A stretch of DNA of 57,847 nt, counting the filler, from Stramenopiles sp. TOSAG23-6 (Eukaryota): NCBI GenBank assembly GCA_900128565.1. It is 3 parts of 3 records of this genome, joined end to end, with 100 filler letters (N's around TTAATTAATTAA, not from the genome) between each part and the next. Parts side by side here need not be neighbours in the genome. Positions count along the whole stretch, not along the records: positions 1 to 19,267 come from LT636051.1; positions 19,368 to 38,584 come from LT636053.1; positions 38,685 to 57,847 come from LT636054.1. One strand, 5' to 3'. The position numbers and the translations under genes were made by a program. The notes under the pieces were generated by a model that was not told the origin of the DNA, searched no databases, and saw nothing but the letters and a program-made list of their open reading frames with translations. Positions 307 through 50,551 of the stretch are shown here, in pieces. Positions within the stretch are counted from its first letter, which is position 1; every line of letters starts with the position of its first letter.

Positions 307-406
307 GTATGTTTTATTTTGTTTCAAATTCGATTTTTTTTTCTTACGAAATTTTGTACCTAACAAATTTTAGTTTTTTTTTTTCAAATATTTTTCCAAA
401 ATACAT
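307..406 (+). other. Family intron, GT-AT (406) or GT-AC (404)
   Basis: Full family consensus; frame is kept only with an end at 404. Confidence 0.7.
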
Positions 407-3400
407 AGTGGCAAAGACTTTAATTGTCTTCAAGCATCATTGCGATTCTTTTCTTTATTGTTGCAGTACCATGATCCTAAACTCGCTAAGTTTCTTGATC
501 AATACAAACTGCCTCCATTTATGTATATACGTTTTTAACATTCATTTTTGACCTACATTTTTTGTATAGAAATTTTTTGTACTAACGAATTTTTTTTTTA
601 CTAAAAAACTAAAAAAAAAATATTTTTCATAATACATGCAACGTCATGGTTCCTTACATTATTTTCACACTCTTTAAGTTTGATCCATTTATTTCCTGTT
701 TGGGATTTTTACATTATTGAAGATAATCCATTTGCACACCATTTTCTTGCTGTGGCAGTCATGTATGTTTTCATCATTTAACCCTAATAACCCTAAATTA
801 TTTTACTATGAAAATTTTGTACCTGACGATTTTTTTTTTATTTGTACAAAAAAAAAAATATATTTTTCACAATACATGATTGATCTTGGAAGGTCTCTAA
901 TGTCAGCTGAATCTGAAACGGATGGTAGACTCAATGTGTCTAGAGATTTACTTATGCAACAATTACTTCGATGTCAGAAACGTATGTATGTTTTAGTTTT
1001 TTTTTTTGTATGAANTTTTTTTTCGTACGAAATTTTGTACCTAACGAAATTAATTTTTTTTTTTTGAAATATTTTTCCAAAATACATGAGGGTCGAAGGT
1101 CTTGGTCGTTGTGGTGGTCATATATGGTTTCATCATTCATTTCGATTTAATTTTTTTTCATACGAAATTTTGTACCTAACATTTTTGTTTTTTTAATATT
1201 TTTAATTATTCATGGTAGTGGTGTCCGAAGATTATGTGAATCCGCGAGACATCTTTTAGAAACAACTCCTCGATCGTTCACTGCGTTACTCAATGAAGTA
1301 TGTTATTCCAAATCTCAACCTAGTGCTACACTATTGAAAAAATTAGAAAGATTACCTTGTCTTGAAGTCCTACCGGGAGAACTTGTACGCAATGCAGAGG
1401 AACAACAGCGCGAGAGAGAAGTGGAGGCAGGAAATATTGTTCAAGAGATTGAACGTATATCAGTCACAAATGTTGGAGTCTCCCAAGTTGCTTCGAAATG
1501 TAAGTATTTCGTAATGGACTGTCGAAGTGTTGCATCATATGATGCTGCCCATTTCTCTATATCTTATCGATTATCGCCTGATTTACTTGATGAAGGAATG
1601 GGAGAACTCTCTGAAATTTTAGATAGTTTCTCAGCAATGAAGGAATGTAATTTATGCTTTGTCGGTGATGCATTGGATTTAAATAAAAAGGAAAGTGTAG
1701 GAAGCAAAGCTCGTACATTCATAAAAAAAGGATGTAGGTTTTTATCATCAATTTCAAAAAAAACAAAATGTATGATAAAAATGTTGTATCTGACAAACGT
1801 TTTTTTTACAAAAACAAATTATTTTTTCACAATACATGGAAACGTGGATTTACAGATAATGACGAGGATGATGATGCTGTAAAATGGGGCGTTTCGACAA
1901 GATTCGCATTGCTCTTTTTACAACGTGGATTTTCAAAGGTAGCTATTGTACCTGGTGGTTTTCCAGCTTGTTTGCGGAAGGCAGGTAGCAGAAGCTCAAT
2001 ATTTGTAAATTGTGAACCAATTGAGAGTGTAAAATGCGACAATAATGTTGGTATGGTGGAGAAATTTTTAGGTGATCATTGGGGTGGAGTAAATAAGATG
2101 TCTTCCATCAAATCTCTACGAAGAAAACAAACACCATTGCGAAATGCAACCGATGCTAATGCTAGATATGCATGGAAATCTTTTAAAGGTCTTTTTATTA
2201 GTGAAAAAACAAAACTAGCATTTCCAAAAATTCCTCTTCCACCAATAGTAACACCAATATCTTCATCTGTGCTTGCAATAAAATGGAAAGATGAAGATGA
2301 TTCTATAGACAAATTTGTACTTGAATATAAACAAGTTCCTTCAGATGGTGATGAGGTCATGACAAAATTCGGTAGAGCCACATTGTGTTGTATACGTAAA
2401 GATGGTATCGCAACTCATTCGTTACATGATTGGAAACTTGATAATGGAGGAATTGTAAATGTGTTTATACCTTTGAGAGATATATGTTTCTCTCCACCAA
2501 AAGTGATTGAGAAATTGCATGATAAAAATAGTGTTGTGAAATGTAAGCCAACGATAGTAAAAATGGAAAATGATAAATGTTTGCCAGATGATCGTTTCGA
2601 GAGTAAGGAAATTTCAAACAAAAAAGTCGTAGAGGTTTCTGAATCCAAAGTAGAGGAAATAAAAACTTTTTCTGTACAATCGAAAATAGATACTCGTCCT
2701 ACTACTTTGGAGAGCAGAAAACATTTTCGTTTGGAAACATCAACTGAATGGCTTAGAGCAAATAATAATGTTCCGATAATTTCAAAATCTAATATCGGAT
2801 TGCCTCACAAGCCTTTTCTTTTAGGCTCTGCTAAAGAAAAGGCAACAACAAAGAATCATACATTTTCTATATCTGTACCATCACCTTTGCTCCCTACATC
2901 TAGGTACTGTGTTCGATTGAGTTCTCACAATTCACAAGGCTGGAGTCATTGGTCATCCCCATCACTACCTGTTTATACTTTATCTCTAGAAGAAGAGGAG
3001 AATCGTGCAAATGAGAGAAAACGAAAGCAAGAAGAAAGAAATGTTGCTTTACAGGCACAAGTAAATATGGAAAGTCGTGAAGGATTAGTATTTTCTGTTG
3101 TATTTGATAGTGGACCTTTAGGTTTGTCACTCAAAGGTGGGAGCATTGGGGGTACCTCTGTCGCTAGAACTAAACCTAATGGTCAAGCTGAATGTCATGG
3201 GGTACAAGTTAATGATGTTGTTGTTGGTGTTGGAGATGAAACTATACTAGACGAAGATTCAGTGGAGATTGTTGTAGCGAAAGTTAAAGCCCATTCTCGA
3301 CCAGTAAAAATTAGATTTTTGCGAAAGACAACACAAGTATCCTTGAATACAAACACAAGTATGTCAAGACTGAATAGAAAGTGTCAAAATGGAAAGAAAG

Positions 3401-4218
3401 ACTCCACAGTTGATGAAAATTCTCAAAAGAAGCATACTGAAAAATCTGATGCAAGTTCATCGAAATTAGCAAATAGCCGAAATTCATTTGGTATTTCTTT
3501 TGGAAAGTTAGGAGGAAAATTTAGCAAGTTAAAGAATAAAATTATGAAAACTGAAACTCATCCTACAAAACGTAATGGTGATGTTGTAGGTCCTTCAGAA
3601 AGAGGCCTCATTAATATCTCAAAATGGCGCGAAGACCCAAAGAAACGTGGTAAATATAAAGATGTAGAAGATAGTAAAATGGAATTCTTTTCATGTTTAT
3701 CGGCTGCTGATGCTTCATTGGAGGGTGCAGATATTGATGATTCACAACGCTGGTTAGTCGTCAATGACTCTTACGTAATGTTTGTTTTATCTTTTTACAA
3801 ATTTCGAATTTTTTTTCGTACGAAATTTCGTACCTAACGATTTTTTTCAAAGTATTTTTCACAACACATGTGTATTTTAGAAGATTCGGAGTATTCTGGA
3901 TGGGGGTCACTGGAAAATAAGTTTCAGTATCGAAATCTTGTAAAAATTACAAGTAAAAAATTAGCAGAAAATGTTTTAATATTTTATATTAATTGTGTTG
4001 ATGATCATGGTCAAGTAGAACTAAAAACATTTTTTTATACAATTGTTAATGCCATGAAACGTCGAGATTGTGTTGCTTCGATTATGACGAAATATAAAGA
4101 AGCGGTACAGAAGGAGAGTTGTCTGAATGATTCCACTACAAATAAGAAATATAAAGAAGTGGTACAGAAGGATAGTCGTCTGAATGATTCCACTACAAAT
4201 AAAAGTTTATCGCCGTAA
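407..4218 (+). CDS. TBC1D23: TBC1D23-like protein, 5'-partial: TBC domain C-half, rhodanese-like, split FN3-like, PDZ, C-terminal PH-like domain. Exons 407-526, 638-762, 878-985, 1088-1121, 1214-1733, 1838-3779, 3870-4218
   Basis: Spliced translation gives LLQYHDPKLAKFLDQYKLPPFMYATSWFLTLF, LLETTPRSF, YFVMDCRS (rhodanese), FDSGPLGLSL (PDZ) and LVVNDSYVMCILE...LVKITSKKLAENVLIFY. These match the TBC1D23 domain order. Confidence 0.85.
527..637 (+). other. Family intron, AT-AT
   Basis: Removal gives PPFMY|ATSWF (TBC YAxxW). Confidence 0.8.
763..877 (+). other. Family intron, GT-AT
   Basis: Removal gives AVM|IDL. Confidence 0.85.
986..1087 (+). other. Family intron, GT-AT
   Basis: Removal gives QKRM|RVEG. 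Confidence 0.8.
1122..1213 (+). other. Family intron, AT-AT
   Basis: Removal gives GGH|GSGVRRL, in frame with TTPRSF. Confidence 0.8.
1734..1837 (+). other. Family intron, GT-AT (diverged)
   Basis: Removal gives KKG-W-KRG, linking the 182-aa and 689-aa ORFs. Confidence 0.8.
3780..3869 (+). other. Family intron, GT-AT
   Basis: Removal gives SYVM|CILE; contains the perfect palindrome GTACGAAATTTCGTAC. Confidence 0.85.
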
Positions 4219-4435
4219 TTAAGAAAACATTTTTTTGATATTCGTTTTAAATAAATATATTTTACATAAATGAGGAATATCTACGTATACCTATACGAGT
4301 TATAAAATACTTTTTATTTTGTAGAGTAAGACAACAAATTTTAATGTATCCCTCTTTTTCACTACTTATAGTTTTATTACCATATAGAATTATCTAGGTT
4401 ATTGTATTCATCTGGAGATTGTAGTTGATTTAGTT

Positions 4436-7400
4436 TTATAACCATGTAGAATCATCTGGGTTATTATATTCATTTGGAGATTGTAGTTGACTTCCATCTA
4501 TTGTATCTCCTATTTCATTTCTATCAACATCTTCTTCTTGATTGGTGCTTTCATTCTTTTGAACTTGCTTATCAGTTTTACCAAGAATTCCCATATCATT
4601 ATTTATAGGAACTACCTTATTACTGCGCTTGAAAGAAACGACTCTAGAGGGATACTGAAGCTGATGTGTATCTCTATCATTATCTTTTAAATCTTCATCT
4701 TTTATATCATCATCTACTTCCTCTTTCAGTTCATCCAGTAGTTTTTTTCTACGACGTTGTTTATGTACTAGGATTTTGTTACGACGTGTTTTTTTTTTTT
4801 TTTCGATCTGTTCTACCGTTTCGTTTCCTAAAATTTTTGCTTCTTTCAGTAATCGCTTGTGGCGTCGTCCTGCTTTTAGCAATTCAAAGAAGCTTAAAAA
4901 CCCATCATTATTCTCGTCAAATTCTTCCAATGCAAGTACATAAGGTTCGAAATATTTATCTACCCTCAAACGTATATTAGGCAACATATAAAACAGGAGA
5001 CACGCTCCATAGACACCTGCAATAATATTACCGATGATGAGAAAATCACCCAGTTTTTCATCATTAGAAGTAAACAATTTGCCAGATATTAGAAGGTTTG
5101 CATAGAATGTGATAAATATCATGATTACTAGAATCATTTGGAGAATAAAATCGGCAGTCCGTTTATATGGCCTGACCCCTGTAAGTATTGTAAGAAACAA
5201 CGCAGCAAGAGTAACACCAACCGCATTTTGTTCAATTCCTTTATCGAACGCAGTCAACATACCAGTCATCATTGCCTTTCGAACCATTTCAACAAACTCA
5301 TACCACCATATCTGTGAACGATAGCATAAAAAAAGGGAACCATATGTACTAATGACTCTGTGGTGCATATGGAGTAATTCTTTATTCTTGGATATTGCAT
5401 GAAACATCTCATTCGGCATATCCTCTTCTGCAATTAGCCAATGACGGACTTTGTATAATGATATTAAACCACAAAGAGGAATTCCTATTACATAAAGAAA
5501 TATACAGACGGTTGCTGTCAGGCGAAGTATATCATAATTTGGACCGTCGCATTCTATACTAATATCAGAAGTGAGATAATTCTTTCCATTTACAGAGAAA
5601 CAATTGAATATTTGAAAGCATCTGACGGTTAATCCTGTAATGAATTGTGATTGTATTTTAACAATGTGTAATGTTAGATTAAGATTAAAAATTTTCATTA
5701 TAAGATAGTTAAAAATAGATCGAATGCAAACTTACCTGGATACATGATAAATATTATTGCCCAAAGGACCCTCCTCGCGTTCATCTTTGCAGATTCACGC
5801 GAAAAATTAGCAGAAGGCTTACAGATAAGAATTAAAGACGCCGTTACAAACGCAAGTGATACCATTATAGCCATCAGTGGCGGCAAGGACATATGCGCAT
5901 AAAATTTTTCGGCGAAGTTTGTAGAAAAGTGACACATGTCAAAATAACCGAAGATCTTCATAAAATCCATATTAATAAAATTGCAATTCGTGCAAAATGT
6001 TTCAAATTTGCTAGGAAATGGTTCGCCTGTAGTGTGTCTCGTTTGGGATATTACTTGTAGATATGATATCAGAAGTTTAATTGTGGCTAAAAGCTCTGCC
6101 CACATATGAACTATACGATGTGACATATGATGACCTAATTGAACCTTCTTTCCATGTAAGCTTTTTCGTCGAAGTCTCTTACGGTGTTCCTTTGCTGATA
6201 TTGGCTCCCGTCTCACTTTCATACTCATTTTCCCCATAAAATCTTTTCTACCGTGTTTTGTGCTTATTTTTCTTGCTAAGGTATGTGCACTGATCGAATG
6301 TTGTCTCAATATTTGGAGTTTCTCTGCCTTAATTTCATCAACATATAAGCCTGTCTTATTTGCCTTTTCCATATTTGCTAAAACATTGTCCTGCATTATC
6401 GCAAATTTTGCTGCCAATTTTAGTTTGTGTTGTATGGATATTCTTTTTTTAGCAGCAGCATCACTAAATACAACTTGATCGGCTGACATTGTCATTATGA
6501 GTAATAACACTATATACAGTGTACAACCCATGACAATAATAACGGTATTCATCGGCGATTGTTTTTCAGGAGAAGAACTACAGTCTCTGCAATTTATATG
6601 ATTTGAATCTAGAACCCAGTTTTCACCATCTACACAACCATGTTTCCACTTCAACTGACATTCGTGTGCACAGACACCAGTATCTACCTCGTTACATTTT
6701 TCTTTGATACATTTATCAAATTTCGTCGTTGAGCAACATATACTGCATAATGGTCCAGTATGACCTTGAGCGCAATTTTGCCAATCATTACCACCAAGGC
6801 AAATTTCAAGAGCAGCGGACTCAGGAACTATATACTTTCCACAATTAATTGGACCATTTGTTGAGAATTCATGTGGTCGTAGTTTTGCGTTATCGTAGAT
6901 TTGCCAGAATCCTGGTGCAAGTGCCATTTTTCTTGTATTTACTTTTGTAAACAATGAAATACCTTTAATACAATGTTTTCTATCAGCTTCCGTCGTATTG
7001 GTGGATACACGAGCTGCTATTTCGTCACACGCACATAATGTGCCTACAGGACATGGTGAACATTGGAGTTGAAATGTCTCTTTTTCTTGGAGCATTTCTA
7101 CTGGGATATCGGTGACTGAAGAAACACCGAATTTTGCCAAATCTAAAGACGTCGTAAAGCCACTTGTTTTTCCAAGGTTTTCATCTAAAAGTGGAATTAA
7201 ATGAGCAAAATGCATAGGAGGACACTCACAACGAGAGTGTGTTTGATCGCCCAATTCGAGAAATACACCTGGGCATTTCTCTGGCACAAGTGAACCAGTG
7301 CCACAAAATTCATCTTCCTGACAGGCTCGTATTTGGTCTGCGGACCTACACGAAGAATTTGGTGGGCATACCGAAACATCAAAAGATCCACTTTCACAGT

Positions 7401-10400
7401 ATGCTGCTTCCCCTGTGTCAATTTGACAAGCTACTTTTGTTGATGGATCAGGACAATAATGACCTGCTGGACACGCTCCTCGGGAAGAGGATCCAGCTTC
7501 ACAATAGTAAGCTCTATCCTTTGAAGATGACTGAGCATTATCACATTTAACTTTTGTACTTGGTGTCGTTATATCATTACTGACGTAACTACAGTAGTGC
7601 CCCAAAGGGCAGATGCTACGCACACTACTTCCTTCAGGACAATAATCGCCCGAGCTACATCGAAGTTCGGTATCAGCGTAATTTTGATTTATGGGGCAAT
7701 AATGCCCTTTTTTGCATTTAATTGGTGAACTTCTCAATGGATGTTCAGCAGAACTGCAGTACATCCCTACGCCACAGATTTGTTCTGTCGAAGGGGTCGG
7801 GCAATAATATCCATTTTGACAGACGCCCTGTTCTACATTTGATCCGCTGCAAAATGAGCCAATCTCACAAAGTGTCTTTGAAGATGGAGTGCTACAATAA
7901 TAGTTCTCAGGGCAATTTGATACTTCTTCTTGTCGGTAAGATCGCAAATGTTCGCATGTCTTTTTATTTCGTGCGTGTGCGAGTAGGGTATAATCATTGT
8001 TAATAGCAAGGATACATCTTTCAGTGACGTTGACTAATGTTCCAACTATGAAATTATCACCTTTTCCTATAACAACTGTATAGTGATTGTTTCCGTTTGT
8101 TTTTTTACACCCAGTGCCATTATCACATTCACTAATACAGTTACCTTCCATGTCCGTACAAGATGGGATAAATCTTCCTCCAGTTACTCTCACAATCAAA
8201 TGGGCTGTTGTTTGTGTATTATTGTCACTTGATGCAGTATCCTCGGAAGTTTTAGTCTTGTCGGAAGTTTTAGTCTTGTCAGAAGTTTTAGTCTTGTCAG
8301 AAGTTTTAGTATCCTCGGACGTTTTAGTGTCCTCGGAAGTCTCATCAGAATCAGTAGATGATTCGCTTTCACGACCAACAGTCTTTACAGAAGTTGCAGA
8401 TGTCCTCGGTGTTATATACCCTAATGGAGGTATTATAGGTGCATTTATCACTATTCTAGGTAAATTATCTTCAGCGCAGTTGTTTTCTGTGTCTATAGTA
8501 ATCACTGGATTTATAACACTCCCAACATTATTTACTGAGTAAGTTCCTTTAGGTTTACATAAATCATTTTCATTTTCAAATTGCATTTCGTAGTCACCAG
8601 TTTTATATGGGCCGGGGTTTCCTCCATTGTCTACAACTGTCACAATTAGTTCTGAATTTACAAACTCCAAGGCAAGTTCTGCGTGTCCAGAGTCAATTTC
8701 TTGGGTTACTTGCATATTCCATAAATGAACAGATGTGTCATCCGGAATTGAAATAGATGGTCTTACATCACAGTTTATATCTTCATCCAACATAACAGAC
8801 CCAATATATCCTTCACTATTGACAATAAATGAACCAGATGGATCTGGTGTACATCTCCCTTCATCATTACTAAATACTACATCATATTCACCAGGAACGT
8901 AGTTTCCATGACCTTCATTAATTATACTTATATACTTGATATTGTCGCTGTCGTCAATTGTAGAGCTACCAACACCCGAATTTGTAGAGGTATCACTCCA
9001 CCCAATAACCCCACCACCGCTGATGGCATACAGCGGGTTATTTACATCAAGATCAAAAATTGTAAGGGTTGCTTCCCATTGTACACCGTCGTTTTCACAA
9101 TATCCGCCTCGGGCATCACAACTGGCAGAAGTATGCGTATTACTGCAGTATTGTCCACTAGGACATGCTTGTTGTATTGATTGACCTTCTGGGCAATAAT
9201 ATCCATTTTTACACTCTTGTCGCTCTTGTTCTTGTGCAACTGTCCAGTTTGACTTACTCCAATTTCTCCCTGCAAATACACAATCCTCATTATTTCCTAT
9301 GTCGTCTCTTCCAATACATCTTCCGCATGACCTTTCATCAGTGAAAATAATCATTGATATTTTGTCATCAGCTGAATGATGAGTTATTAATGTTTGACTA
9401 TATCCTCTTTCCACAGTCAAGGTGGAATACTCCCCACTATCCGCATCATTATAAGTTGTTATTCCTTTGACAAGAACTTTTTCCCAATATTTATTTCCAT
9501 TTGTATCAAGAATTGAATTACTGGACTCAATTTTTAATCTACTCCCAATAGATATTGGATAATTATTATCACTTAATATATCCAAAGTGCTACTGTTTAT
9601 CGTTATACTTTCCCTAAGAATAGACGTAGTCAACATACTACACTCACCTGCTGGACATCCCAAACACGCCGTGGGACAGTAGCCACCCTCTACACAACTT
9701 TGGGCTCTTACATCTTTTGAACCTTCAGTACAGTGACTACCAGCAGGACAAATTCTTTTCACTCCTGGGGTTGAACAGAAATAACCCGCTGGGCAAGGTG
9801 ATACCGTTAGGGGTTCCCCGAGTAATCTGTCTTTGCCGCAATATTGACCTGCTGTACATTGTATTAGAGTTTCAGGATTTGGGCAATAATAACCGTCGGG
9901 GCATTTTAATGGCGAAAATACTCCAACTGGACAGTATGTTCCGTTGATTTTACACGGATATTTCTCACTTGATGTGGGACAATAGTGACCCACATCACAA
10001 GGTTTTGGTTCTTCCGAACCCTCACTACAGTAATTGGCACTTACAGGACTTGGCAAAGGCTGATATTTTGTTTCCGACCAATTTAGAGAAATTTTGATGG
10101 CACTTGATTTAGTTCCACAAGGAATTTCTTCTTCAGAATATTCTCTCTTCGCTCGCCATAATTCAGTTTTTGCGATATCGCTCACAAACTCCACTTCTGG
10201 ACTCTGTTTCCAAGCACGCAAACACACATAAGTTTCATCTGGTACATTAGCCCATGTCAAATACCCCCCCACTGGAATTGTTATAGCGTTCTGTTGAAGT
10301 TCAGCATCTTTTGGGACTCCCATTACTGTTCCATGTGAATATAATTTCTCGTTTTCCTTTACGCGTGATAACGACGAATGGATATATATCATATCTCCAT

Positions 10401-13400
10401 TATATACATGTGAAATAGTTGGCGACACGTTTTTATACAAAATGTCGCCTTCGAATAAGTCGGTGAATATCCCCTCTCCGAAATCAATACTTGTCGGGCT
10501 AGTTGTCGTGACAATTCCAATATCTTTAAATGTAGACCCCCTTTGTACAAATATGTGATCACCAGAAACAAAATGTACTCTTGGATCAACACTTACAGCA
10601 ACTAATGACCCACTTTCCATGTCTGTATTCACTTTTACATTGGTTTCACTGGCAGTAAAAAATGTAAGCTCTGATGCGGATACACTAGTAATAATACCAA
10701 TTGCAGTTCCATCCTTTCGATAAGCCATTGTCTGATGATCATCAGAAGTTTGAACTTGTATTCGTGGGTCAACTCCTTCTACCGTGAGCGTTGTTTGCCC
10801 GGCTAGTATCATAGAAGAACCATCGATACTAATTCCGCGTGGTAATACTTTCAATATCGCATTAGTACCGGTATCGTTTCCGTGTGCAGTTGGAAGTTTC
10901 GAGCATTGGCCAATTTGAGTAATTGAAGTAGATGTTATTTCCCTGTTAGTTTCTGCTTTTGTCATTTCTATGGAAATGTCGCCGATTAATATCAAACCTG
11001 GGGCAAGGAAAGAGCCATATTCGATCTGTACATATATCACGTTACCTTCTGGAATCGACTTCACTCGGCCTTTTGTGCGACAAACGTTTTCAGAATTACA
11101 ATTTTGGGTAACCTTTTCGTCAATAGATATTGATTCTGTCGTGGACGCAATTATAATTTTGATGATATTACGAACCTCAAAATTGGCAATTGGTGGGATG
11201 GAACATACTCCACCCACAAATATTATTGGACCTGGTTTGTATCCTGAACCCCCGTTGACTATACTTATACCCTTAATTCCCATGTTCATTATGCGTACAC
11301 CAGTTGCACCCTGTGCAGGTGTGCTACGAAGTCTAAGCTTTTCGAGTGCTCCAACATNAACTAACGTAGGAGTTNCATTTTTATACAAATTTTCACCTTG
11401 ATGAATATTCACATATGGGACCTCAGTCAGTTTTATACTTGTATCTGATGAAGTATCAATTACACCAATTATTTGATGGTCTTTATTATAAATGGTGTCA
11501 CCTGGAGAAAAATGATGATTAACAAAATCTCCGTTGACTTCGAACGTTTTTATCCCTGAGACATCATTAACTGAATATACACTACTAGGTATTATTGTTC
11601 CAAATGTCAGAGTCAATGAACTTTCATCGGAAACGCGTTCTATGCTAAAAAGTGTTCCTATTTCAGAGAAATCTTCTTTAAAAACGCGCACTCCCGGAAC
11701 AAAATCCGCAATATAACAATCGGGGATAGGACTATCATATTCCATTGGCTTCTTTGAGTACACATTCAAAGGATCTCCACCAGAGTAATCTTCATGAATG
11801 ATGAAGTCTTCAGATGATACCTCAATAATTCCATCACTTGATTTTACGGTAATTGATTCTTTAGCTGATAGTATCAAAACCAAATTATCACTATTCAAGT
11901 CCTTTATATACCATTTGTCATTTTGTGTAAGATCCCATCGCTTAGTTTCTCCTTTGGAAATGGAAAAAGTTAAAGTTGCACTGGTTCCTTTTACAGATGC
12001 CGATAAAGATAAATTTGCAGTCATTATTAAAAATGCATTAACACTGTATTTTGTTGTATCCATTACTGTTTCGGTGTATAAGACACAATCTTTGAAAATA
12101 GGAATATCTTTATCTACACTTCCTCTTCCACGAGGGCCCGAATTGTCCACAAAACTCGGACCATAATCCAAATTAGTTGTTGTCCCCCATCCCATGGTGT
12201 CTTCCCAAGTTTCAGTGTCATCTAATCCGAATACCGATGACGCAAGTAATTTATATGAATATAATTTGTCGTCTACTTCAAGGTGTGTTGATACATTTCT
12301 CGTTAAAACAATTTCGTGATTTTGGGTATCACCGTCACTGTCTGTAACTTTCATACTTTTGATTATACCAATATTTCTTCCGTCGCTTCTAAATATATTA
12401 TCACCGATACTAAAATCCTCATACAATTTGCCACCTTGTGTGTAAAGAATGTCAAGAGATGAACTTGCTCGTATGCTAACTTCTGTCTCTATATTCGAAA
12501 AATGAATCTGAGAAACTTCTGCTTTACTGACAATACCAATGTCAGTACCATCACTCTTATAAACATGTTGCCCAGGACGAAATCTTACAATAGATTCGTC
12601 ATTGTAACCTTTGAGCTTAATGATATCAAAGTTGCCTTCACTGCAAGGAACAATTGTAGTGTCATTTATACATTTATCAACTTGTACTTTGGCATCACTC
12701 TGTAATTTCATTTTCCGCTTATATACAAAAGATGATCCGTCAATGATTGATGAATTCATAGTAACAAACTCAATTGACGAAACACTAGTTGCCTTGATGA
12801 CCCCAATCTCATCATTATATTTTGTATATGCGCGATCTCCTGGACTAAAGTGTATACTGGGATATACATCATATGAGCAACCCAGAGTTATACTTTTTGG
12901 AATATAACTGTCAGTCAAGGACTGGAAAAACACTTCCTCTACTTTGAAAATATTATGACCATTTGCTAAATCTACGATGCTAAAATAAAAAGAGGTACTA
13001 GAAATAATAGTGATTTTACCTTGAGTACAGCAATGTCTATATCTTATAGATGAAGCTTCGGTAGAGTTTCTGCAACACCCTTGATATATAAATGAATTTG
13101 TCTCTAACAATTCTCTCCAGTCATGAGATACATCAAAATTTAGAATATAATAAAAGATATTATATTGTCTCAGTTTAGTTGGTGTGATGGAAGTAGGATG
13201 ATATGCATATAATTGAGTCCCACCATGAATTTCTGATAATCGACTCGATGTTAGCGTAATTGTTTGCCTACAATTCATATCCGTAATATGGCCACTTCCT
13301 GTGTAAGATTTCATGGGTTTACTTGAATCGCCTCTTTTTACACGACTTAACCTTGTAAACACATTACTTTGACTACAATTACCCAGAAGATTTGAGTGTG

Positions 13401-19232: not shown

Positions 19233-19267
19233 GAAGAAGGTATATTAAGGGAGAGAAACTTTCACTT

Positions 19268-38584: not shown

Positions 38585-38684
38585 NNNNNNNNNNNNNNNN
38601 NNNNNNNNNNNNNNNNNNNNNNNNNNNNTTAATTAATTAANNNNNNNNNNNNNNNNNNNNNNNNNNNNNNNNNNNNNNNNNNNN
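38585..38684. other. Artificial contig linker (N-run, TTAATTAATTAA, N-run)
   Basis: Same linker as at 19268. Confidence 0.95.
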
Positions 38685-39700
38685 GGGTCATCTTTTCGAG
38701 GTTTTAACATCCTATATGCTTCCATGGTTTCTGCATCCATTTGTGAGGAGTTTCCATTGAATGAGTTGTACTTACGACTTCTTTCAGATGCAACACCGTT
38801 TCTTTGAAAGTTTTTTTCCTTCTCTAAAGCTATTTTCATTTTATCTTGGTCCAATTTTATATCTTCTGATTCACCATATAGTGTTTTTTCGTTATTAACA
38901 GGTTTATTAGAGACCTCCGATGAAGTTGATACCTTTGACAACAATTTTCGTTCCATTACAGTTTTTGATGCCATTTTCGCACGAATTCCAGCTTCACCTG
39001 TACAATACGATTTCTCAACACATTGTTGGCAACATCGATAACCCCACTCTTGTGTTTCTAAATCAAACCAAGATCCCCAAACACTTTTATGATTATTAAT
39101 TAAAACATCTTCTTCATACTTGGTTCGTCGAATAGTCTCAGTGCTAGTTGTTTGACCAATAATACGCCCTTCAGAATTATATTGCAGTTGGTGTTCAGTC
39201 TGACCAAGAAGTAAAGATCTATCTGGAGCACGCAGTTTAGACTGATCACCATATTTTTCAAGTATTTTTTCAGACCGACTCGTTTTTATTTTGTTTTTCC
39301 TTTCTTGGAACTGCTTTTGTAGTACTGCTACTGCTGTAGGATTGCCACTCGTATTAACTCCACTGCCACGACTATAACTTTCCCACGCAAAACTTTGAGA
39401 TTTTAAAAAACCTACGCTTTCACCAGAAACACGAGTTGCATTATCTCCTGAATATACAGCTAGTTCTTTTGGTATATGTGGAGTAGGATTACCTCTCATA
39501 GACCGTGACTTTGGATCGTAGTGAGCAGAGTTTGGATCAAGATTTCGTAAGTACTTTGGAATAGATCAGAATCAGAACCATAAACTGTTGATTGATAGTC
39601 TTCCGGTTTTTTCTTGTCACCAAATTTGGCATCTCGTTGCTTAATTTTTTGACGACGAGATTCAGCTTCAGCATCATTAAACTTCTTTATAGTTCTTTTA
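38685..39700 (-). CDS. SLU7: SLU7 second-step splicing factor, central/C-terminal fragment; inverted and internally disrupted in this assembly
   Basis: PKYLRNLDPNSAHYDPKSRSMRGNP, GDNATRVSG, FAWE, ILEKYG, KYEEDVLINNHKSVWGSW, WGYRCC..SYCTG, MEAYRM..RKDD. The frame breaks near 39563. Confidence 0.85.
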
Positions 39701-39701
39701 T

Positions 39702-40022
39702 GCATATAGGATGTTAAAACCTCGAAAAGATGACCCGATGAATGCATTTCTAACAGAAAAAGAAGAAAATCAAAATGAAAATAATGAAGCAGTCAAAAGT
39801 ATTAAAAGAAAGCGTTCCAAGAAACGAAGTTCTTCGTACTCGTCAAGTAGTAGTAGTTCTAGTTCTGGTAGTAGCTCTAGTTCTGGTAGTAGCTCTGATT
39901 CTGACAGTAATTCCGATAGTAGTTCTAATTCGGAATCTGCGGAGGAGAAGAAGATAAATAAGAAAAGAAAAAGTTCTGGAAAGGATCACAAAAAGCGAAG
40001 AACAAAGAAAAGAAAGAAATAA
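39702..40022 (+). CDS. SLU7: C-terminal end of SLU7 (AYRMLKPRKDDPMNAF...Ser/Lys-rich tail)
   Basis: 39702-39736 is the exact reverse complement of 38685-38719 and continues the SLU7 frame to a stop at 40022. Confidence 0.8.
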   Translation, partial: AYRMLKPRKDDPMNAFLTEKEENQNENNEAVKSIKRKRSKKRSSSYSSSSSSSSSGSSSSSGSSSDSDSNSDSSSNSESAEEKKINKKRKSSGKDHKKRRTKKRKK

Positions 40023-40142: not shown

Positions 40143-41669
40143 TTATTTTTCTGTAGCCCGATCGGGGATCATTCCATCTACAGCTATACGTGGCTCTACA
40201 CCAATACGGCGAAGACCAGCCCTAAATTCATTAAAGTCAATAGTTCCATTACCATCTGTATCAATGATATCAAAGAGTTGCTGCACAAGTTCAATATCTT
40301 CAACCCCTTTTTCCACTGGTATAAATGTTTTCTCCGATGGTTCTCTTCGTATCTTTGAATCTAGACGATCAGAAACTGCCTTTACAAATTCCTCAGTTGA
40401 TAATCCTGAAGGCCCACACAGATCCCGTGTTCCTTTACCTTCAACCATTAGTTCGTGCATGGTTTTTCTCAAATGTCCTGTAAAATCATGAATTTTTTGT
40501 TTCTTTTCACCTTCAAATGAAAGATCAGCTGCATGGTTCATTGCGCCAATTAATGCTTCAACCATACCTAAAGGATTGAAGGAAGTCTCTTCACCCCGTT
40601 GATGAGCTTCCCATAAGTCAGCAACTGTTCCATGAGATGCCTCATATTCTTTAATCATAGTACCATCATCATTTTTCCCGATAAGATTCGAAGTGATAAA
40701 TCCAGGACTGCGGTGAACCTGTGCAACTTCGTCTGTGAGCATGTCACCATCATAATTATGAGCAGCCATTCCAAAGCCACCACCCGTCCATCGGATAATC
40801 TGCATAGTAGCAGCATCAGAGATAAGGTGTTGAAGTTCTCCATTTGTGTCTTTTAATAGACCTTTAGCAGAAAACTTATCTTTGTAATCCTTATCAAATA
40901 CCTCCTTCATAGCCACCCAGAATCCTTCCTGCCATTTGAATACGGTCTTTTTAGTGACCACATATGGTACAACACCAGCACCATCATCGGCCTCTAAACA
41001 TCGTGAGAAGAAGTGGTGTGCGAGGTCAGTCACGTTGTCCAGAGGATTATCGTATGAAACTACAACACTGGAGTTGTCTGTTAAATGACGATTATCAATT
41101 ACACTTGGTGCACTCCCATCTTGTGGATGAAACATAGTAGTAACCTGACCTTTGCCAACTGCAGCCCATCCTGCTGAATATTCACCACCAACAGCATGTC
41201 GTTCAAACAACACAGGCCTTTTGAAACCTAAATCAAGACCATCTATGTGAATAGTATCACGGCTTATTGTAATACCGTTCCATCCACGTCGCATTGCTCC
41301 GTTTGGACTACCCCAAGCTTTCTTAAGTCCCAACTTTTCCTTCTGGACCTCCGTTGGAGTAATTGTTGGTTCTTTAAAGATTGCACCAATACGCTTTCCT
41401 GCAGCAACTGCGTCATGCAAAACTTTATCCTCCGTATTATCTCGAGATACGCAACTTAGATCATAGAAATCCCAAGAAGACGTGTCAAAACGAGGATGTA
41501 TCCATTCATCTAATATCAATTGCATACAATAACGAGTCATCTCCTCTCCTTTGATGAAAACCATCGGAGGAGCGACAAGCTTATCTCCAGATGCAGTTGA
41601 GAATGAACGAGCCACCAGATTGTGATACTTCACAGTCAAAGAGCTACGACAAAAGAGACTACGGAGCAT
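40143..41669 (-). CDS. IDH: Isocitrate dehydrogenase (NADP-type family), likely mitochondrial, with a C-terminal EF-hand; intronless
   Basis: GEEMTR, KEPTITP, WGSPNGAMRR, HNYDGDMLTD, EASHGTV, TSFNP, DTDGNGTIDFNE; presequence-like N-terminus. Confidence 0.93.
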   Translation of the reverse strand: MLRSLFCRSSLTVKYHNLVARSFSTASGDKLVAPPMVFIKGEEMTRYCMQLILDEWIHPRFDTSSWDFYDLSCVSRDNTEDKVLHDAVAAGKRIGAIFKEPTITPTEVQKEKLGLKKAWGSPNGAMRRGWNGITISRDTIHIDGLDLGFKRPVLFERHAVGGEYSAGWAAVGKGQVTTMFHPQDGSAPSVIDNRHLTDNSSVVVSYDNPLDNVTDLAHHFFSRCLEADDGAGVVPYVVTKKTVFKWQEGFWVAMKEVFDKDYKDKFSAKGLLKDTNGELQHLISDAATMQIIRWTGGGFGMAAHNYDGDMLTDEVAQVHRSPGFITSNLIGKNDDGTMIKEYEASHGTVADLWEAHQRGEETSFNPLGMVEALIGAMNHAADLSFEGEKKQKIHDFTGHLRKTMHELMVEGKGTRDLCGPSGLSTEEFVKAVSDRLDSKIRREPSEKTFIPVEKGVEDIELVQQLFDIIDTDGNGTIDFNEFRAGLRRIGVEPRIAVDGMIPDRATEK

Positions 41670-42047
41670 GGTAAGACTTTTACAAATAAAGAAACTTGCA
41701 ATTCAAATAACGAAGTATCTAATGCTTAAAATATTTTATCTGGGAGAAGCTGGTATATATATACAAAAGGATATAGCAGACACACGCGATGATTCTAGCT
41801 TTACTACAAGTAGCCTAGGAAGGTAACACTCTCTCGATCGTGTGAAAAATCTTTTTTATTACGTTTTGTTGACGTGTCATGACAGAAAAGACTGACTTCT
41901 TGCAATTAATTGGGACACATGTGTACAACACACTACATCGGCTAGCTACTACGTATAGGTTCTACTAGTCCTATTTCAATTAGTTTTGTACCTAAAACTT
42001 CTTAAGGGTCTGTGTGTGAGTTCATGATGCATTTTCAGAGTAGAGGA

Positions 42048-44843: not shown

Positions 44844-44886
44844 TGTTTATTATATGCTTTTACATTTTAATATAAAGGAATTATTA

Positions 44887-46825
44887 CTATATTGGTTCAC
44901 ATAATGTACAGTCGCATTCAAAGTGATACGGTCGTAAACATTCTCTACGTTCTTCAGTACTACATTGAGTTCCATCGATATAAGACACGCAAAGTTCATC
45001 ACCACATTTTATATCTTTTATTGCATGAAGAGAAACCTTCGCGAACGATTTCTCTAAGTCAAGTCTATCTTCTGCCTCATCAAGTCCAGCAGCAACATTG
45101 GGTTGACAACTATGATTTAGGGTAGCATACCTTGAACAAAGTCCAGAAGCAGTTGCTGATGGAAAGCATGGAATACCTTTATTTACTTTCATGAGATTTT
45201 TCTCAAAGTCTTCTAAAGCTACTTTCATATTTTTAGCTGTGCAGTCCATCTTTGCTCTATTTAGAAAAGCCCATAGCGGAGAAGGTACATCAACTTGAAC
45301 TACATTGGTTTGAACACAACCAATAATATAGTCCAAGAAGTGAGGTGTCAATAAAGACGCAGCTGCGACTGCAGCATCGTCATCAAAAGAGTGCATAAAT
45401 AAAATCTGCATTGCTTGTAGAGGTTCTCTAAAGACTTCGTCCCACGTTGAGTTTACTTTAAATTTATCTTTTCGCTCATTTTCAGACATACCAAAGAGAA
45501 TCATACAAGTATCCACAGCTGATACAGTTGAGAACTGACCTATTATTTCATCCACTGCATTTTCCATTGGAACTTTGCCTGTTGTATGCCTCCCTATTAT
45601 ACGACATATTAACCGAAGAATAAGACCAAGATGAAGAACGTCGTACTGACCAAGCCCGCGAAAATTACGTAAAGCTGTAATAGCAGCAGGATCTTTGTGT
45701 GTACAAAGAATGCGATGATATTCGTCCGATGCATTCTTTCGACATTTTTCTGAACAATATACAGTTTCACAATTCTTACAAGATACTGGCTTTGGAAGAA
45801 AATCTGTACCACACCCTTGCAATACTGTTTCACGTATAATCGTTTTGTATTTAGGGGATTTTAATTGTATATTACTAACTTTCGCTGCATGACGAACAAC
45901 TTGCCAAATAGGCCCTATGTATTGTGAAAAAATATTTCAAAAAAAAATTGTTAGGTACGAAATTTCGTATGAAAAAAAAAAGTTAAATTAAAAATTCATA
46001 TAAAACGTACATAAAACGAAGACAATGATCGCATGTCATTGACTCAGGAATTATTTCTATTGATGCACATCCATCATCACCTAAGAGTTTTCGGTGAAAT
46101 GCAATAGGCTTTTCGTAACTTCCAACTGCGGCAGTACGAGCCAAATTTTCTGTAGCAATTACACCTACTCCGTGTCCTTTAATTATTTGAGGTTTATATG
46201 GGACAGAAATATTTAAAGAATTAAATATATCTGCAATTTTCAAGACACGATTATTCATACTATTTTGTGTTTGTACAACAGATAATGCGTCAGATTTATT
46301 TAGCACTGAAGATGCTACAGATACATTTGACGTAACCCTTTTCAAGATTTTCTGGAAAACTTCAGTAGGATCTTCACTACATGATTTATTTGGAGAAATA
46401 GAACATTGTTTATCTGTCAAAGTCTTTGACTTTTTTTTCTTCTTCTTCTTTTTACGTTTTCTTGTTTTCTTCACATCTACATTATTTTCCAAACTCTTTT
46501 GTCCGAGTAATTCTGAAGGAACTTCAGAAGACGTGACATCCACTGATGGCAATAAGCACTCTTTCATTTGAGGTTTAGAATTTACAGAGGGTAAACCACT
46601 TTCTATGACTTTACTGCACTCAGATGGTTGTGTATTTGAAGAAGAAGGATTTACTTTTGGATCAATATCAGACTCTTCTTGTGATTTTCGAAGTAATCCC
46701 TCAATGCGGTGGAGTTTCAGTGTGCGTTTTATATCATCAGTCAACCGACTAATTAAACTAGAAAGCTCATACTCATCCAAAGAAACTTCGGCATCCTTAA
46801 GCAACTGATAAATACAAGTACTCAT
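44887..46825 (-). CDS. SMYD-like SET/MYND lysine methyltransferase. Exons 46825-46011, 45916-44887
   Basis: GHGVGVIATENL, CDHCLRF-IG, CKNCETVYCSEKC, LNHSCQPN, IKCGDELCVSYI, YHFECDCTLC. Confidence 0.9.
45917..46010 (-). other. Family intron, GT-AT
   Basis: Removal gives CDHCLRF-I-GP; the adjacent AG is out of frame. Confidence 0.9.
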
Positions 46826-47130: not shown

Positions 47131-50100
47131 ATGAGCCAAAGTTGTCTCATCATTGGTGGTGGTGTAGCGGGTGCTTGTCTCAGTCGAACACTGGCTGCAC
47201 GTGGTGTCGCGGTAACACTCATTGAAAAATCAGAGCTACTTTGCTCCGGTGCAACTTGGCATGCTGCTGGTTTGGTCACTCGGTTTGGCGGTAGTCCCAA
47301 GCTGAAAAAGATTCATGTCCGATCACTTCAAATTCTAAACGAATTGCACGACGAAAGTGAGAATGGCATTAGTCTTCATACACCTGGTTCTATACGAATA
47401 ATTGAAAAGGGTAACCCCGATCGCCTCAAAGAGGCCCATCAACATGTTGCAATGGCTGCTTTGTATGACGATCCGGAATTTCCATGTGAAATCATTTCTG
47501 CGGATGAGTGTGGAGAAAGACATCCTCTATTAGACTGTAGCAATGTAGAATGTGGTGTTTGGACTCCAAATGATGGTGATATTGATCCCACGTCACTAGT
47601 TAATGCTGTGTCCGGGAAAGCAAAAGCAGATGGTGCAAAATATATACTTAATACAGAAGTTGTGTCTATTGAACACCGTCAAGGAGGTGGATTTTGTGTC
47701 AAATCTGCATGTGGACAAGTATTTGAAGGTGATATGCTTGTCAACGCAGCTGGTCTTTGGTCTAAACAGATAACAGAAATGGTTGGTGATGGTATGGTAC
47801 ACCCAGGTTTCATTATTGAGCACCAATATGTAAGTTTCCATGTGCTTTTTTTTTTCGTGGTTTTTGTGATAAATTTTATTTTTCTTTTACAAAGAAAATT
47901 CCATACCTCACAATAATTGTTTTTGTGTGATGTATTTTTTACCCAATATGCAATCACAGAAGAAATTCCAGAAATTGCAGCACTACTCGCTAAAGGTAAA
48001 AGAGTGTACGTTTCTAATTTAATTTTTTTTTTGTACAAAATTTTGTACAAAATTTTGTACCTAACAATTGTTTTTACTAAAAAAATACTTTTTCACAATA
48101 CGTCCCTGTTTTACGCGATCTCAAAGGTTCAAGTTATATTCGACAAGAAAGATCAGGTATATTAGTCGGGCCTTATGAGGAACGGACTGTATTACGGAAT
48201 AAACCTGATGATCGAGGTACCTGGAAGAATGGACCTCCTAGCGATTGGGGGCATGAGCTATTTCCTGATGCACTTGATCGTATTGAGGGTAACTTACTTT
48301 CTGCGATGGAACTTTGTCCAAGTCTTGCTGAAGTTGGATTTATCAATTGTACAAATGGACCTACAATTTGGACTGGAGATTCACTTGCTCGTGTAGGTCG
48401 AACACATAGTACGTTTTCATTATAAATTTCATTTTTTGTGTATAGAAAATTTTGTACCTAACGACTTTTTTTTGAATATTTTTCACAAGACATTTCCAGG
48501 ATATTTCGATTTCAATACACTTACATATGGTATCGCTCAATCTCCAGCACTTTCTGAGTATTTAACTTCAATTATGCTTGATGGCGAACAACCGTTTGAT
48601 GCTGCAGCAAATTTCGATCCAGTGCGGTATGGCTCTTGGGCAACAGCAGGAACAGTTATTGGTGATGCATATACAGAAGACGTTGTACTTGACACATATG
48701 GAAAAAATAATTGTATTGCTTATCCCTTTGAGAATCGAAAAGCTGGACGTTCTCATCTTGTAGAAATACAAAGCCCACTATACCCCAAACTTCTAGAACA
48801 GGGTGCTCGTTGTACATTTAGCTTATCTGGTGTTGAAGTACCTGCATGGTTTGAAGGTATTTCATCTGCTTCTTCTATTAGTGAAATTCCTATAAAACCA
48901 GTTGAAAATGAATTAACGTTTGATCATCATGAGTGGGCACCACACGCAGCTGCTGAGTCTCAACATGTCCTACATTCAGTGGGTATCCAATATGCATCGT
49001 TTTCTAAAATAAAAGTATCTGGGCCTCATGCTCGTGATTTTCTAATGCGTGCTACAACAAATATTATACCCAAAAAAATGGGACCATGTAGGCTGACATA
49101 TGCTTTGACACCTAAAGGAAAAGTTTTAGCAGAGTTTTCAGTCACAAAGACTGATGTATGTTTTCATCATTGATGTAAGATTTTTTGTTTTTTTTCATAA
49201 GAAATGTTGTACCTAACAAATTTTAAACTTTAAAAATATTTTTTCAGAGTATATGAAGATGAGTATTATTTGGTTGGTTCTCGAGATTACGCAGAGCATG
49301 ATACATTGTGTACATTTTCATCATGAATTTCAAAATTATTATTCAAATTTATTATTTTTTTACCTATGTGGATTTCAATTTTTGTAACATACCTAACAAA
49401 ACAATCAAATTTTTGAAATATTTTTTTACAATTTACGGTTTCGTTCAATTCTTCATCATGGTTCAAATCACTCTGATTCAAAAGAAGATAATTGGAAATT
49501 GTCTTTAGGCCTTTCTAATTGTTTAGATGTAAAAGTAGAAAATATTTCAGATGATGTAGATATGTATGTTTTATTTTTTTCAATTTCGAATTGTTTTTTC
49601 CGTACGAAATTTCGTACCTAACAAATTCTACAAAAAAAAATATTTTTTCACAATATATTTTACATTTGGCTGGCCCAAAAAGTCGAGAATTACTTGGAGC
49701 TATATCCCCTGCAGTGCTTGATATTCCATTTATGAATATGAAGTCACTTGAAATTGCAGGTCAGTTAGTAAACGTATTTCGTGTTTCTTTTTCTGGTCTA
49801 GTTGGGTTTGAAATTCATTGTCCTCGTAATTCTAGTAGTGTGACTGCCGTGTATGATGCATTACAAGAACATCCGTTGGCAACAAAAGAAAAATTAAATC
49901 TTCGACCTTTTGGAGGATATGCTTTAAATGCACTTCGTGTTGAAGTAGGATTTCGTGTAAAAGCTGATTTGGATTATATGCACTACAAAGAAGCTGGTAT
50001 TGAACCATTTACTTCAATGAAAAAATCTATGGGATTTATTGGTAAAAATACAAAATCATTGGAAGATATCACAAAAAAACCTGCAATGTTTCAGGTCAAT

Positions 50101-50551
50101 ACTGAGAGTGGTTATGAATGGAGTATTCCTAGCGATTGTCCAATGTATGTTTCATTCTTCATTTTTACCCATTTTTTTTTTTCATAGAAAATTTCATACC
50201 TAACATTTTTTTTATCCCAAAAAAAAAACAATTTTTCACAATACATTCGGGATCCATCAAATAATGATGTAGTAGGCTACACAACAGGATCTGCCTTTGG
50301 TGCTCGAACAAATAAAACGATTGCCATGGGTTACCTACATGTACATTTTCATCATTTACTTTTACCTATTTTTTTACTATGAAAATTTTATACCTAACAA
50401 AAAAAATTAAATGTTTTGAAATATTTTTGTAAAAGTACATTCTGATGTATCAAAGAACAAATTATATGTAGAATCGTATGGTAAGAAATGGAATGTTACG
50501 GTGCTCTCTGAACCACCTTCAACCGTTACTGGACGAGATGGTGATTTTTAA
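47131..50551 (+). CDS. DMGDH: Dimethylglycine dehydrogenase-like FAD oxidoreductase with a GcvT domain; 9 exons
   Basis: IIGGGVAG, SGATWHAAG, DGDIDP, EHQY-AITE, PVLRDL..SSYIRQE, HLAGPKSRELL, RVSFSGLVGFEIH, ALNALRVE, VGYTTGSAFG. Confidence 0.9.
47830..47949 (+). other. Family intron, GT-AT (GTAAGT donor)
   Basis: Removal gives EHQY|AITE; CCAATAT precedes both junctions. Confidence 0.85.
48006..48103 (+). other. Family intron, GT-GT (or 48004-48101 GT-AC)
   Basis: Either register gives KR-V-PVLRD. Confidence 0.8.
48409..48493 (+). other. Family intron, GT-AT
   Basis: Removal gives GRTH-I-PGYF. Confidence 0.85.
49156..49254 (+). other. Family intron, GT-AT
   Basis: Removal gives TKTD|EDEYYLVGS; two upstream AGs are out of frame. 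Confidence 0.9.
49310..49436 (+). other. Family intron, GT-AC
   Basis: Removal gives HDTL-W-FRS (conserved HDxxW). Confidence 0.8.
49564..49658 (+). other. Family intron, GT-AT
   Basis: Removal gives DVD-I-LHLAGPKSR. Confidence 0.9.
50145..50246 (+). other. Family intron, GT-AT
   Basis: Removal gives DCP-I-RDP..VVGYTT. Confidence 0.85.
50341..50440 (+). other. Family intron, GT-AT
   Basis: Removal gives AMGYLH|SDVSK. Confidence 0.85.

Follow-up and report, generated by a model that had tools for sequence, protein, structure and literature searches.

Genes and introns of the window

The window analyzed here is a stretch of 57,847 nucleotides (nt) of DNA from Stramenopiles sp. TOSAG23-6 (assembly GCA_900128565.1), composed of three parts joined end to end. 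The DNA is eukaryotic and gene-dense (57.8 kb, 30-41% GC), with scattered single Ns and four blocks of 44 Ns. It was found that the window has 35 introns. An initial annotation had assigned all introns to one repeat family, and this is true for 34 of them, which lie in seven genes, while the remaining one, 5635-5735 on the minus strand, is probably a conventional GT-AG intron and is not detected by the family model. The family introns mostly begin with GT and end with AT. They are probably spliceosomal introns of one introner-like repeat family, with a unit of about 100 nt.

Pfam searches of the long open reading frames (ORFs) revealed a TBC/FN3/PDZ protein, a USP-type protease with EF hands, a protein kinase, a C5 DNA methyltransferase (DNMT), a giant IQ/ankyrin protein, Slu7, an isocitrate dehydrogenase-EF-hand fusion, eIF5B, a SET protein, a dimethylglycine dehydrogenase (DMGDH), PNKP, an ABC-class ATPase, and an EEP nuclease. 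The family copies are distributed over the USP gene (nine), the DMGDH and TBC genes (eight each), the DNMT gene (five), the kinase gene (two), the SET gene, and a gene for a papain-like protease (one each). Nine smaller genes have no family intron.

An intron family with fixed sequence boxes

A scan of the window for the box TTGTACCTAAC gave 35 matches against 16 ± 4 expected, and the matches, aligned in register, shared a common architecture. A family hidden Markov model (HMM) was built from 28 introns and used for an nhmmer search of the window. Reading the minus strand added three copies and the DMGDH gene one, and the model finds all copies of the family. Three of the 34 copies are incomplete, two at the window ends and one at an N block. 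The length range of 85-131 nt given by the initial annotation was borne out by 31 introns (median 100 nt). Every significant match to the family HMM is genic and lies in the sense orientation of the host gene.

The family consensus has 91 columns and runs from GTATGTTTT.. through ..TTTTTTCATACGAAATTTTGTACCTAAC.. to ..AAATATTTTTTCACAATACAT. Its parts are a 5′ GTAYGTTTT, a centre ..CGTACGAAATTTTGTACCTAAC, a T/A run, and the 3′ box ATATTTTTCACAATACAT. A half-palindromic CGTACGAAATTT precedes the branch box TACCTAAC. The fixed 3′ box is ATATTTTT(T)CACAATACAT, and the cut follows directly after it. The distance from the branch box to the 3′ end varies from 32 to 53 nt, while the 3′ box is always flush with the cut; thus, it may be the box that places the cut. 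The pattern of the two boxes occurs nine times in the window and never in 100 shuffles. The same pattern had no match in metagenome, viral, and prokaryote genome contigs, and of 204 pattern matches of a DMGDH exon in metagenome contigs, none was confirmed. The intron phases are even (9/10/11), which at this sample size does not differ significantly from the usual phase-0 excess.

In two introns, the central box is duplicated in tandem: 26540-26670 (-) has two copies of TATAGAAAATTCCGTACCTAAG, and 48006-48103 (+) has three TTGTACAAAATT-like units. Slippage may be a way for the branch region to lengthen. Many copies also have a subterminal inverted repeat of 7-8 nt (ATTTCAAA and TTTGAAAT, at consensus positions of about 20-28 and -22 to -15), which is AT-rich and missed by folding.

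Splice ends and excision

The ends of 29 family introns were checked by reading frame. There are 23 GT-AT, three AT-AT, one GT-AG, one GT-GT, and one GT-AC introns. Thus, the AT acceptor proposed earlier is found in 26 of 29, and a single copy, 20440-20537 (-), ends with AG. Six introns are unambiguously GT-AT, with no possible slide of the junction. For the 19 introns preceded by an exon-final AT, an AT-AC reading gives the same mRNA. The first base is G or A and the last base is T, C, or G, without co-variation. Two introns of the TBC gene had to be revised. The 100-nt interval 307-406 is not frame-consistent as first given; the frame needs 307-407 (GT..TA) or 305-408 (AT..AG), resulting in an ORF of 1148-1149 amino acids (aa), or else a draft indel in exon 1. 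For the intron placed near 1126, the frame fits only 1122-1213.

Removal of the introns results in continuous ORFs in six genes (864, 1482, 579, 341, 616, and 1064 aa). The 1482-aa USP ORF, with eight introns removed, has intact Cys-box and QQDAQE..HEDL motifs. The 579-aa DNMT ORF, with five removed, carries ENVPGL, QRRNR, TPRECARLQGFPD, and GNAV. The kinase ORF (two introns, 341 aa), the SET ORF (one intron, 616 aa), and the TBC gene from exon 2 (six introns, 1064 aa) are likewise continuous. In the DMGDH gene (47131-50.6k, plus strand), removal of eight introns at motif-anchored ends gives 864 aa, and all eight junctions are gap-free in an alignment with 15 homologs. For DMGDH intron 3, only the GT...AT cut gives an Ile, which is present in nine of the 15 homologs, while shifted cuts give a Phe found in none. 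Intron 5, taken as GT...AC, restores a Trp that is invariant in 16 of 16 sequences.

For RNA, Logan contigs from two poly(A) metatranscriptome runs, both belonging to one study, were compared with the window; 15 of 227 joints are listed. One contig has pieces on 47696-47822, 47943-48003, and 48102-48251, and a second one joins 47951-48003 to 48102-48258. A third contig consists of 49096-49153, 57 unplaced letters, 49437-49559, and 49655-49718, and a fourth joins 50245-50335 to 50436-50588. These contigs skip 120, 98, 95, and 100 nt at DMGDH introns 1, 2, 6, and 8, as predicted, and the coordinate offsets are due to the junction repeats only. The 57 unplaced letters correspond to exon 5 (55 nt) plus 2 nt; thus, introns 4 and 5 were also removed. 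For introns 3 (48409-48493) and 7, no bridging RNA contig is among the joints listed. Another run (X8) has exon pieces and one unspliced piece, with no spliced contig among the matches listed. Independent seawater DNA metagenome contigs cross the DMGDH exon-intron borders with the introns kept (for example, 47593-47891 and 48052-48470). Non-AG acceptors (AT) are really used in RNA.

Table 1. Introns of the window. Positions count along the whole window; a slash marks a splice junction
Position	Strand	Intron	Evidence
1-53	+	3′ part of family intron, ends ..CCAAAATACAT/G	window edge; nhmmer E=2.4e-5
307-406	+	family, subfamily A, ends ambiguous	HMM E=4.8e-13; 100 nt out of frame
527-637	+	family, AT-AT (starts ATACGT)	Pfam TBC profile 166/167 across junction; ORF continuous
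763-877	+	family, GT-AT, CCCTAA-type insert	HMM, frame
986-1087	+	family, GT-AT, subfamily A	HMM, frame
1122-1213	+	family, short 5′ end, AT-AT, 92 nt	nhmmer 1124-1184 E=6.9e-7; only frame fit
1734-1837	+	family, GT-AT (GTAGGT)	HMM, frame
3780-3869	+	family, GT-AT (GTTTGT)	HMM, frame
5635-5735	-	probable conventional GT-AG (CAG/GTAAGT..CTAAC..TTACAG/G)	in-frame join, phase 1
19368-19422	-	5′ part of family intron	cut by N block; nhmmer E=5.5e-6
19543-19642	-	family, GT-AT, CAT/GTA at both junctions	frame
20440-20537	-	family, GT-AG (ends TATCAG)	nhmmer 20472-20530 E=0.0022; frame-consistent, 1482-aa USP ORF
21201-21294	-	family, GT-AT, subfamily A, upstream dinucleotide AN	HMM, frame
21352-21460	-	diverged family, AT-AT (ATATGT..ATCCAT)	weak HMM match E=0.48; frame
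21614-21716	-	family, unambiguous GT-AT (exon ends GT)	frame
21850-21940	-	family, GT-AT, subfamily A	HMM, frame
21973-22067	-	family, GT-AT	HMM, frame
23123-23230	-	family, unambiguous GT-AT (exon ends TT)	frame
25805-25894	+	family, unambiguous GT-AT (exon ends AG), subfamily A	frame
25969-26078	+	family, AT-AT (ATATGT)	frame
26295-26403	-	family, unambiguous GT-AT (exon ends GA)	frame
26540-26670	-	family, GT-AT, central box duplicated	two HMM matches, alignment, frame
26790-26883	-	family, unambiguous GT-AT (exon ends GT)	best HMM match E=8e-16; frame
27065-27182	-	family, GT-AT, subfamily A, 96% match to 307-406	frame, pairwise comparison
27277-27385	-	family, GT-AT, CCCTAA-type insert as in 763-877	frame
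45917-46010	-	family, GT-AT, SET-domain gene	HMM, frame
47830-47949	+	DMGDH intron 1 (GTAAGT..CCAATAT), 7-nt junction repeat	RNA contig 47822/47943, 120 nt skipped; gap-free homolog alignment
48006-48103	+	DMGDH intron 2, GT-GT (GT-AC if slid by 2)	RNA contigs, two runs, 48003/48102, 98 nt; homolog alignment
48409-48493	+	DMGDH intron 3, unambiguous GT-AT	homolog Ile
49156-49254	+	DMGDH intron 4, GT-AT	RNA contig letter count; homolog alignment
49310-49436	+	DMGDH intron 5, unambiguous GT-AC	invariant Trp; RNA contig piece from 49437, right letter count
49564-49658	+	DMGDH intron 6, GT-AT, subfamily A	RNA contig 49559/49655, 95 nt; homolog alignment
50145-50246	+	DMGDH intron 7, GT-AT	homolog alignment, frame
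50341-50440	+	DMGDH intron 8, GT-AT, 5-nt junction repeat	RNA contig 50335/50436, 100 nt
57793-57847	-	3′ part of family intron before last exon of papain-like protease gene	window edge; nhmmer E=1.1e-5

As for the features of U2-type introns, the GT 5′ site, the branch box, and excision from RNA were found, while only one of the 29 frame-checked family introns has AG at the 3′ end. Each family copy carries its own full set of signals, namely the 5′ site, the branch box, the T/A run, and the 3′ box. The branch A would be the A of CTAAC, and UACCUAAC is a candidate stretch for U2 pairing. In the mechanism that I propose, the host major spliceosome would place the 3′ cut by the 3′ box, and neither by AG nor by the distance from the branch. 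Since the cut follows the 3′ box, the usual intron end is AT, with AC, GT, or AG as occasional ends. An Rfam scan of the window gave no match at gathering scores, and no small nuclear RNA was found in it. A gene for Slu7, a second-step factor involved in 3′ splice site choice, is present at 38633-39565 (-), where its C-terminal two thirds are encoded, with N blocks at 38585-38684 (Pfam 4.8e-54). This part aligns with residues 271-581 of human SLU7 (E=1.8e-53) and looks ordinary. The Slu7 stretch just upstream (39566-39720) is in another frame, indicating a draft frameshift or gap.

Copying versus constraint

The mean pairwise match between the introns is 0.75, versus 0.62 after shuffling, and the highest value, for introns of unrelated genes, is 0.96. 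That maximum involves 307-406 and 27065-27182, for which a shared stretch had already been noted: it is present, and the two introns, whose genes are unrelated and lie on opposite strands, show a 96% match over the shorter one, spacers included. Two versions of the 5′ end coexist, the subfamily A form GTATGTTTTATTTT and the alternative form GTAC(G/A)TTTTCATCATGAATTTC. The A-type end co-occurs with the spacer motif CAAATTCGA (8/10 vs 0/21, Fisher P=6e-6), with the centre CGTACG (7/10 vs 1/21, P=3e-4), and with the 3′ variant TCCAAAATACAT (6/10 vs 0/21, P=3e-4). The mean mutual information of informative columns at least 25 apart is 0.171, compared with 0.147 ± 0.004 (maximum 0.157) in 300 column shuffles. 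A telomere-like AACCCTAA(TAA)CCCTAA insert is found at an equal relative position in 763-877 (+) and 27277-27385 (-), again in unrelated genes. In the seawater DNA metagenome run X3, with 2469 contigs placed at 90% likeness or more, the summed contig depth is about 2-12 in exon bins (one 0) and about 290-13,800 in intron bins. Two RNA runs repeat this pattern, with an excess over introns of hundred- to thousand-fold, and assemblies break or chimerise at the introns. Taken together, these sequence comparisons support copying, rather than mere splice signals, as the source of the likeness. The lineage would have had few other introns, and the family would have been copied into many of its genes.

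Several observations weigh against this interpretation. The RNA support is from one gene, two runs, and one study, and among the joints listed, none of the RNA contigs spans an unambiguous GT-AT junction. The summed depth takes in other organisms and partial matches and is not a copy number. The initial annotation had proposed to look for antisense or intergenic copies; none was found in the window by nhmmer at E<=10, apart from scraps of 17-24 nt, a result that fits old constrained introns too, with the limit that the intergenic part of the window, by a rough count, is only about 3 kb, in which about two copies are expected. The ORFs of 13.6 kb and 7.3 kb have no copy, against 8.9 (P=1e-4) and 4.7 (P=0.009) expected. 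The copies cluster in genes coding for conserved domains, as old introns in old genes would. Neither polymorphism, nor an empty site, nor an autonomous element was seen in the window.

Origin of the family

What kind of copying might be involved? The upstream exon ends with AT in 19 of 29 introns, against an AT dinucleotide background of 10% (binomial P ~1e-12), and the downstream exon starts with G in 20 of 29, against 21% (P ~3e-8); the counts of 21/32 and 22/32 in the initial annotation are compatible with these. One tentative explanation is a non-autonomous cut-and-paste DNA transposon with the core GTAYGT...AATAC and a 2-bp AT duplication, the downstream AT having become the acceptor as a by-product of the target choice of the transposase. 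The frequent AT at both ends is as expected from it, and in 48006-48103 both the flank and the end are GT instead. The junction repeats reported earlier, CAT/GTA at 19543-19642 and CCAATAT at 47830-47949, are present, and the mean length of the repeated run is 2.03, versus 1.68 in permuted pairs (P=0.001), an excess due to three or four introns: 47830-47949 (7 nt), 50341-50440 (5), 49564-49658 (4), and 48006-48103 (GT/GT). In three of these four, atypical intron-final bases copy the upstream exon, as with the CCAATAT and ATAT ends. A eukaryotic transposon group with 2-bp, typically AT, duplications exists, namely ISL2EU (PMC4122938); it is a concrete candidate partner for this model, although none is in the window. 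The introner survey (10.1101/2022.06.06.494994) describes introners in which the duplication supplies one splice site. On the other hand, the test of that survey compares within-locus with between-locus matches, and here it gave no locus-specific 5′/3′ match (ratios of 0.99 at -1 and 1.07 at -2), which is "ambiguous" in the terms of the survey. A non-AT upstream dinucleotide is fully read in nine introns; it is repeated at the 3′ end only in 48006-48103, while the other eight still end with AT, AC, or AG. Of the introner reading in the initial annotation, the single repeat family stands, and it has subfamilies, whereas the AT acceptor derived from a target-site duplication was not confirmed; such an origin is possible, with a low probability. 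The ends ATGTA(T/C)...(A/T)TACAT do exist when the exonic AT is included. However, the "terminal inverted repeat" made of them is only 4-6 nt long (5-6 nt for these ends), follows from the two splice-site consensus sequences, and forms no RNA structure. The window also has no transposase, just as noted before: no Pfam transposase domain is present in the ORFs scanned. It is equally conceivable, at a low level of confidence, that excised copies reverse-splice into transcripts at ..AT/G.. sites and then become fixed through reverse transcription and recombination, a route suggested for introner-like elements of fungi. In this case, all 34 copies being genic and sense, their concentration in a subset of genes, and the lack of a locus-specific duplication would be natural, and the AT/G flanks might reflect which exon sequences the spliceosome prefers to bind. 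The introner survey (10.1101/2022.06.06.494994) also mentions this fungal model. Against such RNA-based spread, the window has no reverse transcriptase, and the excess of junction repeats is not predicted. Fungal introner-like elements are reported to fold stably, while the introns of the window have no stable fold (mean z -0.26, 0/29 below -2, and no consensus pairs by RNAalifold).

Two further explanations do without a mobile element. The introns may be old and immobile, belonging to an intron-poor lineage whose spliceosome demands long signals, perhaps with gene conversion, so that the likeness is due to constraint. The conserved blocks do sit at the places of splice signals, all copies are genic and sense, and conserved domains are favoured. 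However, I consider this unlikely, since the 5′ end, spacer, centre, and 3′ box occur side by side in two alternative versions, each with its variants linked, the telomere-like insert is common to two unrelated genes, and the identity reaches 96% through the spacers. The even phases and the probable plain GT-AG intron, spliced without the boxes, also speak against it. A very improbable alternative is that they are AT-AC introns (/ATGTATG...ATAC/) removed by a minor U12-like or AT-AC-tolerant pathway. The 19 AT-preceded introns would allow this, an A is present at +1 in three or four copies, and U12-type introns also have variable 3′ ends. Yet ten introns without a clean upstream AT (nine with another dinucleotide and one with AN) have the same architecture and unambiguous GT starts. 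By definition, U12-type introns have RTATCCTT at the 5′ site, and their branch site is 10-26 nt away from the 3′ end; the 5′ consensus of the family is GTATGTTTT, and its branch box lies outside that short range.

The probable conventional intron and neighbouring genes

The intron 5635-5735 (-) joins a 4537-aa ORF in frame to a TRP/EF-hand ORF. The family HMM does not detect it, and its alignment score (z ~3 versus shuffles) makes it weakly family-like. A Pfam search of the terminal part of the 4537-aa ORF did not confirm the join. Judging from the in-frame join, it is probably a conventional GT-AG intron. If it is real, the host does not need the long boxes of the family.

The 4537-aa ORF itself (5698-19311, minus strand) has no family intron, and three 1500-aa pieces of it had no Pfam match. 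Upstream of it, the USP gene (24693 to 19450) has no stop codon before the N-interrupted intron at 19422. The two may form one giant gene. At 40143-41702 (-), there is an intron-less ORF in which an isocitrate/isopropylmalate dehydrogenase domain is fused to C-terminal EF hands. Another ORF at 50874-52082 (-) has four tandem repeats of about 65 aa (W.D.EI..L..LN..RPK.S.QDIADIMSKELVPNRRKYT...) with a Myb/SANT-like look. It was considered as a Harbinger-type partner, and this idea was dropped: there is no adjacent DDE gene and no PDB match, and the HTH_32 match is below the threshold.

Consequences for gene annotation

The sole identical database protein was found for the DMGDH gene. It is labelled "eukprot:GSMAST32.ASY1.ANO1.2091.1", a stramenopile-type label. 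The next relatives have about 60% identity and include stramenopiles such as Hondaea. The public protein model is 791 aa in length, compared with 864 aa once the gene is spliced; it runs through family introns and ends inside one. A translated intron of this model resembles the intron at 21613-21672 (85% over 20 aa). When a translated intron was used as a protein query, the only match was the public DMGDH model of the window. The annotation of this genome is likely to be damaged by the non-AG introns. In the available part of a paper on single-cell MAST genomes, introns appear only in the gene-prediction methods, and MAST-3 assemblies have low gene numbers (PMC5778133). Gene finders based on GT-AG fail here, and the gene counts, completeness figures, and "pseudogene" calls of the lineage may be distorted.

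Relation to known intron systems

Introners of Micromonas pusilla and Aureococcus anophagefferens were reportedly described by Huff, Zilberman, and Roy in 2016, a study cited in PMC7789003, and the introner survey (10.1101/2022.06.06.494994) also deals with introners. The algal introners resemble the present family: they are short, non-coding, highly similar, present in many unrelated genes with their own splice signals and subfamilies, and found in marine picoeukaryotes including a stramenopile. They are reported to have canonical GY-AG ends and, in many cases, clear duplications and inverted repeats, and to occur alongside many ordinary introns. In contrast, the family in the window has an AT acceptor in about 90%, an ambiguous duplication, and a trivial inverted repeat, and it makes up 34 of 35 introns.

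Intron-poor eukaryotes have extended signals, such as GTATGT/TACTAAC in yeast and the 3′ motif of Trichomonas and Giardia. Extended and fixed intron signals in such eukaryotes were reportedly treated by Irimia and Roy in 2008. Like the present family, they have a strong 5′ site GTATGT and a fixed sequence beside the 3′ cut, and their branch box is TACTAAC-like. Their introns, however, end with AG and are alike at the signals only, whereas the family is alike through the spacers and has subfamilies. The 5′ half of the family introns is conventional and only the last base departs; the non-canonical introns of Fritillaria borealis, in contrast, reportedly lack GT at the 5′ end. These and the euglenid introns are similar in having lineage-wide non-GT-AG borders, but the euglenid introns have no conserved borders and have paired ends. 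Neither paired ends of the euglenid or Amoebophrya type (no stable helix in 29 introns) nor the U12-type signals were found in the family.

The introner elements of Amoebophrya, a marine protist, are repeated introns with non-GT-AG borders and direct repeats over the exon/intron boundary, on which standard gene finders fail (PMC7789003). Together with the algal introners, they are nearest in kind to the present family. Their inverted repeats of 8-20 nt form a hairpin, and they have many families and no single border rule, while the family in the window follows the single rule GT...AT, does not fold, and has a 5′ site and a branch box like those of yeast. ISL2EU/PHIS transposons are described as cut-and-paste elements with a 2-bp, typically AT, duplication in AT-rich targets (PMC4122938, PMC4482050). 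This is what the transposon model calls for, but neither a transposase, nor long inverted repeats, nor an empty site was seen in the window, and the resemblance is a lead only. It is doubtful that one mobile element replaced the intron complement of the lineage, that an ISL2EU-like AT duplication became the acceptor, and that the spliceosome reads YAT via the 3′ box.

Few rules of eukaryotic gene expression are as constant as the AG at the 3′ splice site. In the literature searched, supplements excepted, no paper was found with GT-AT introns as the main type of a lineage, and GT-AT as a standard intron type thus appears to be unreported there. If, in a free-living marine protist, about nine of ten introns end with AT and are removed from the RNA, this would be a natural system for studying site choice in the second step of splicing. 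The family would also directly test whether introners can import a new splice rule. If an element did replace the introns, this would be the first genome with GT-AT as its standard and a live case of a transposon rewriting the splice code.

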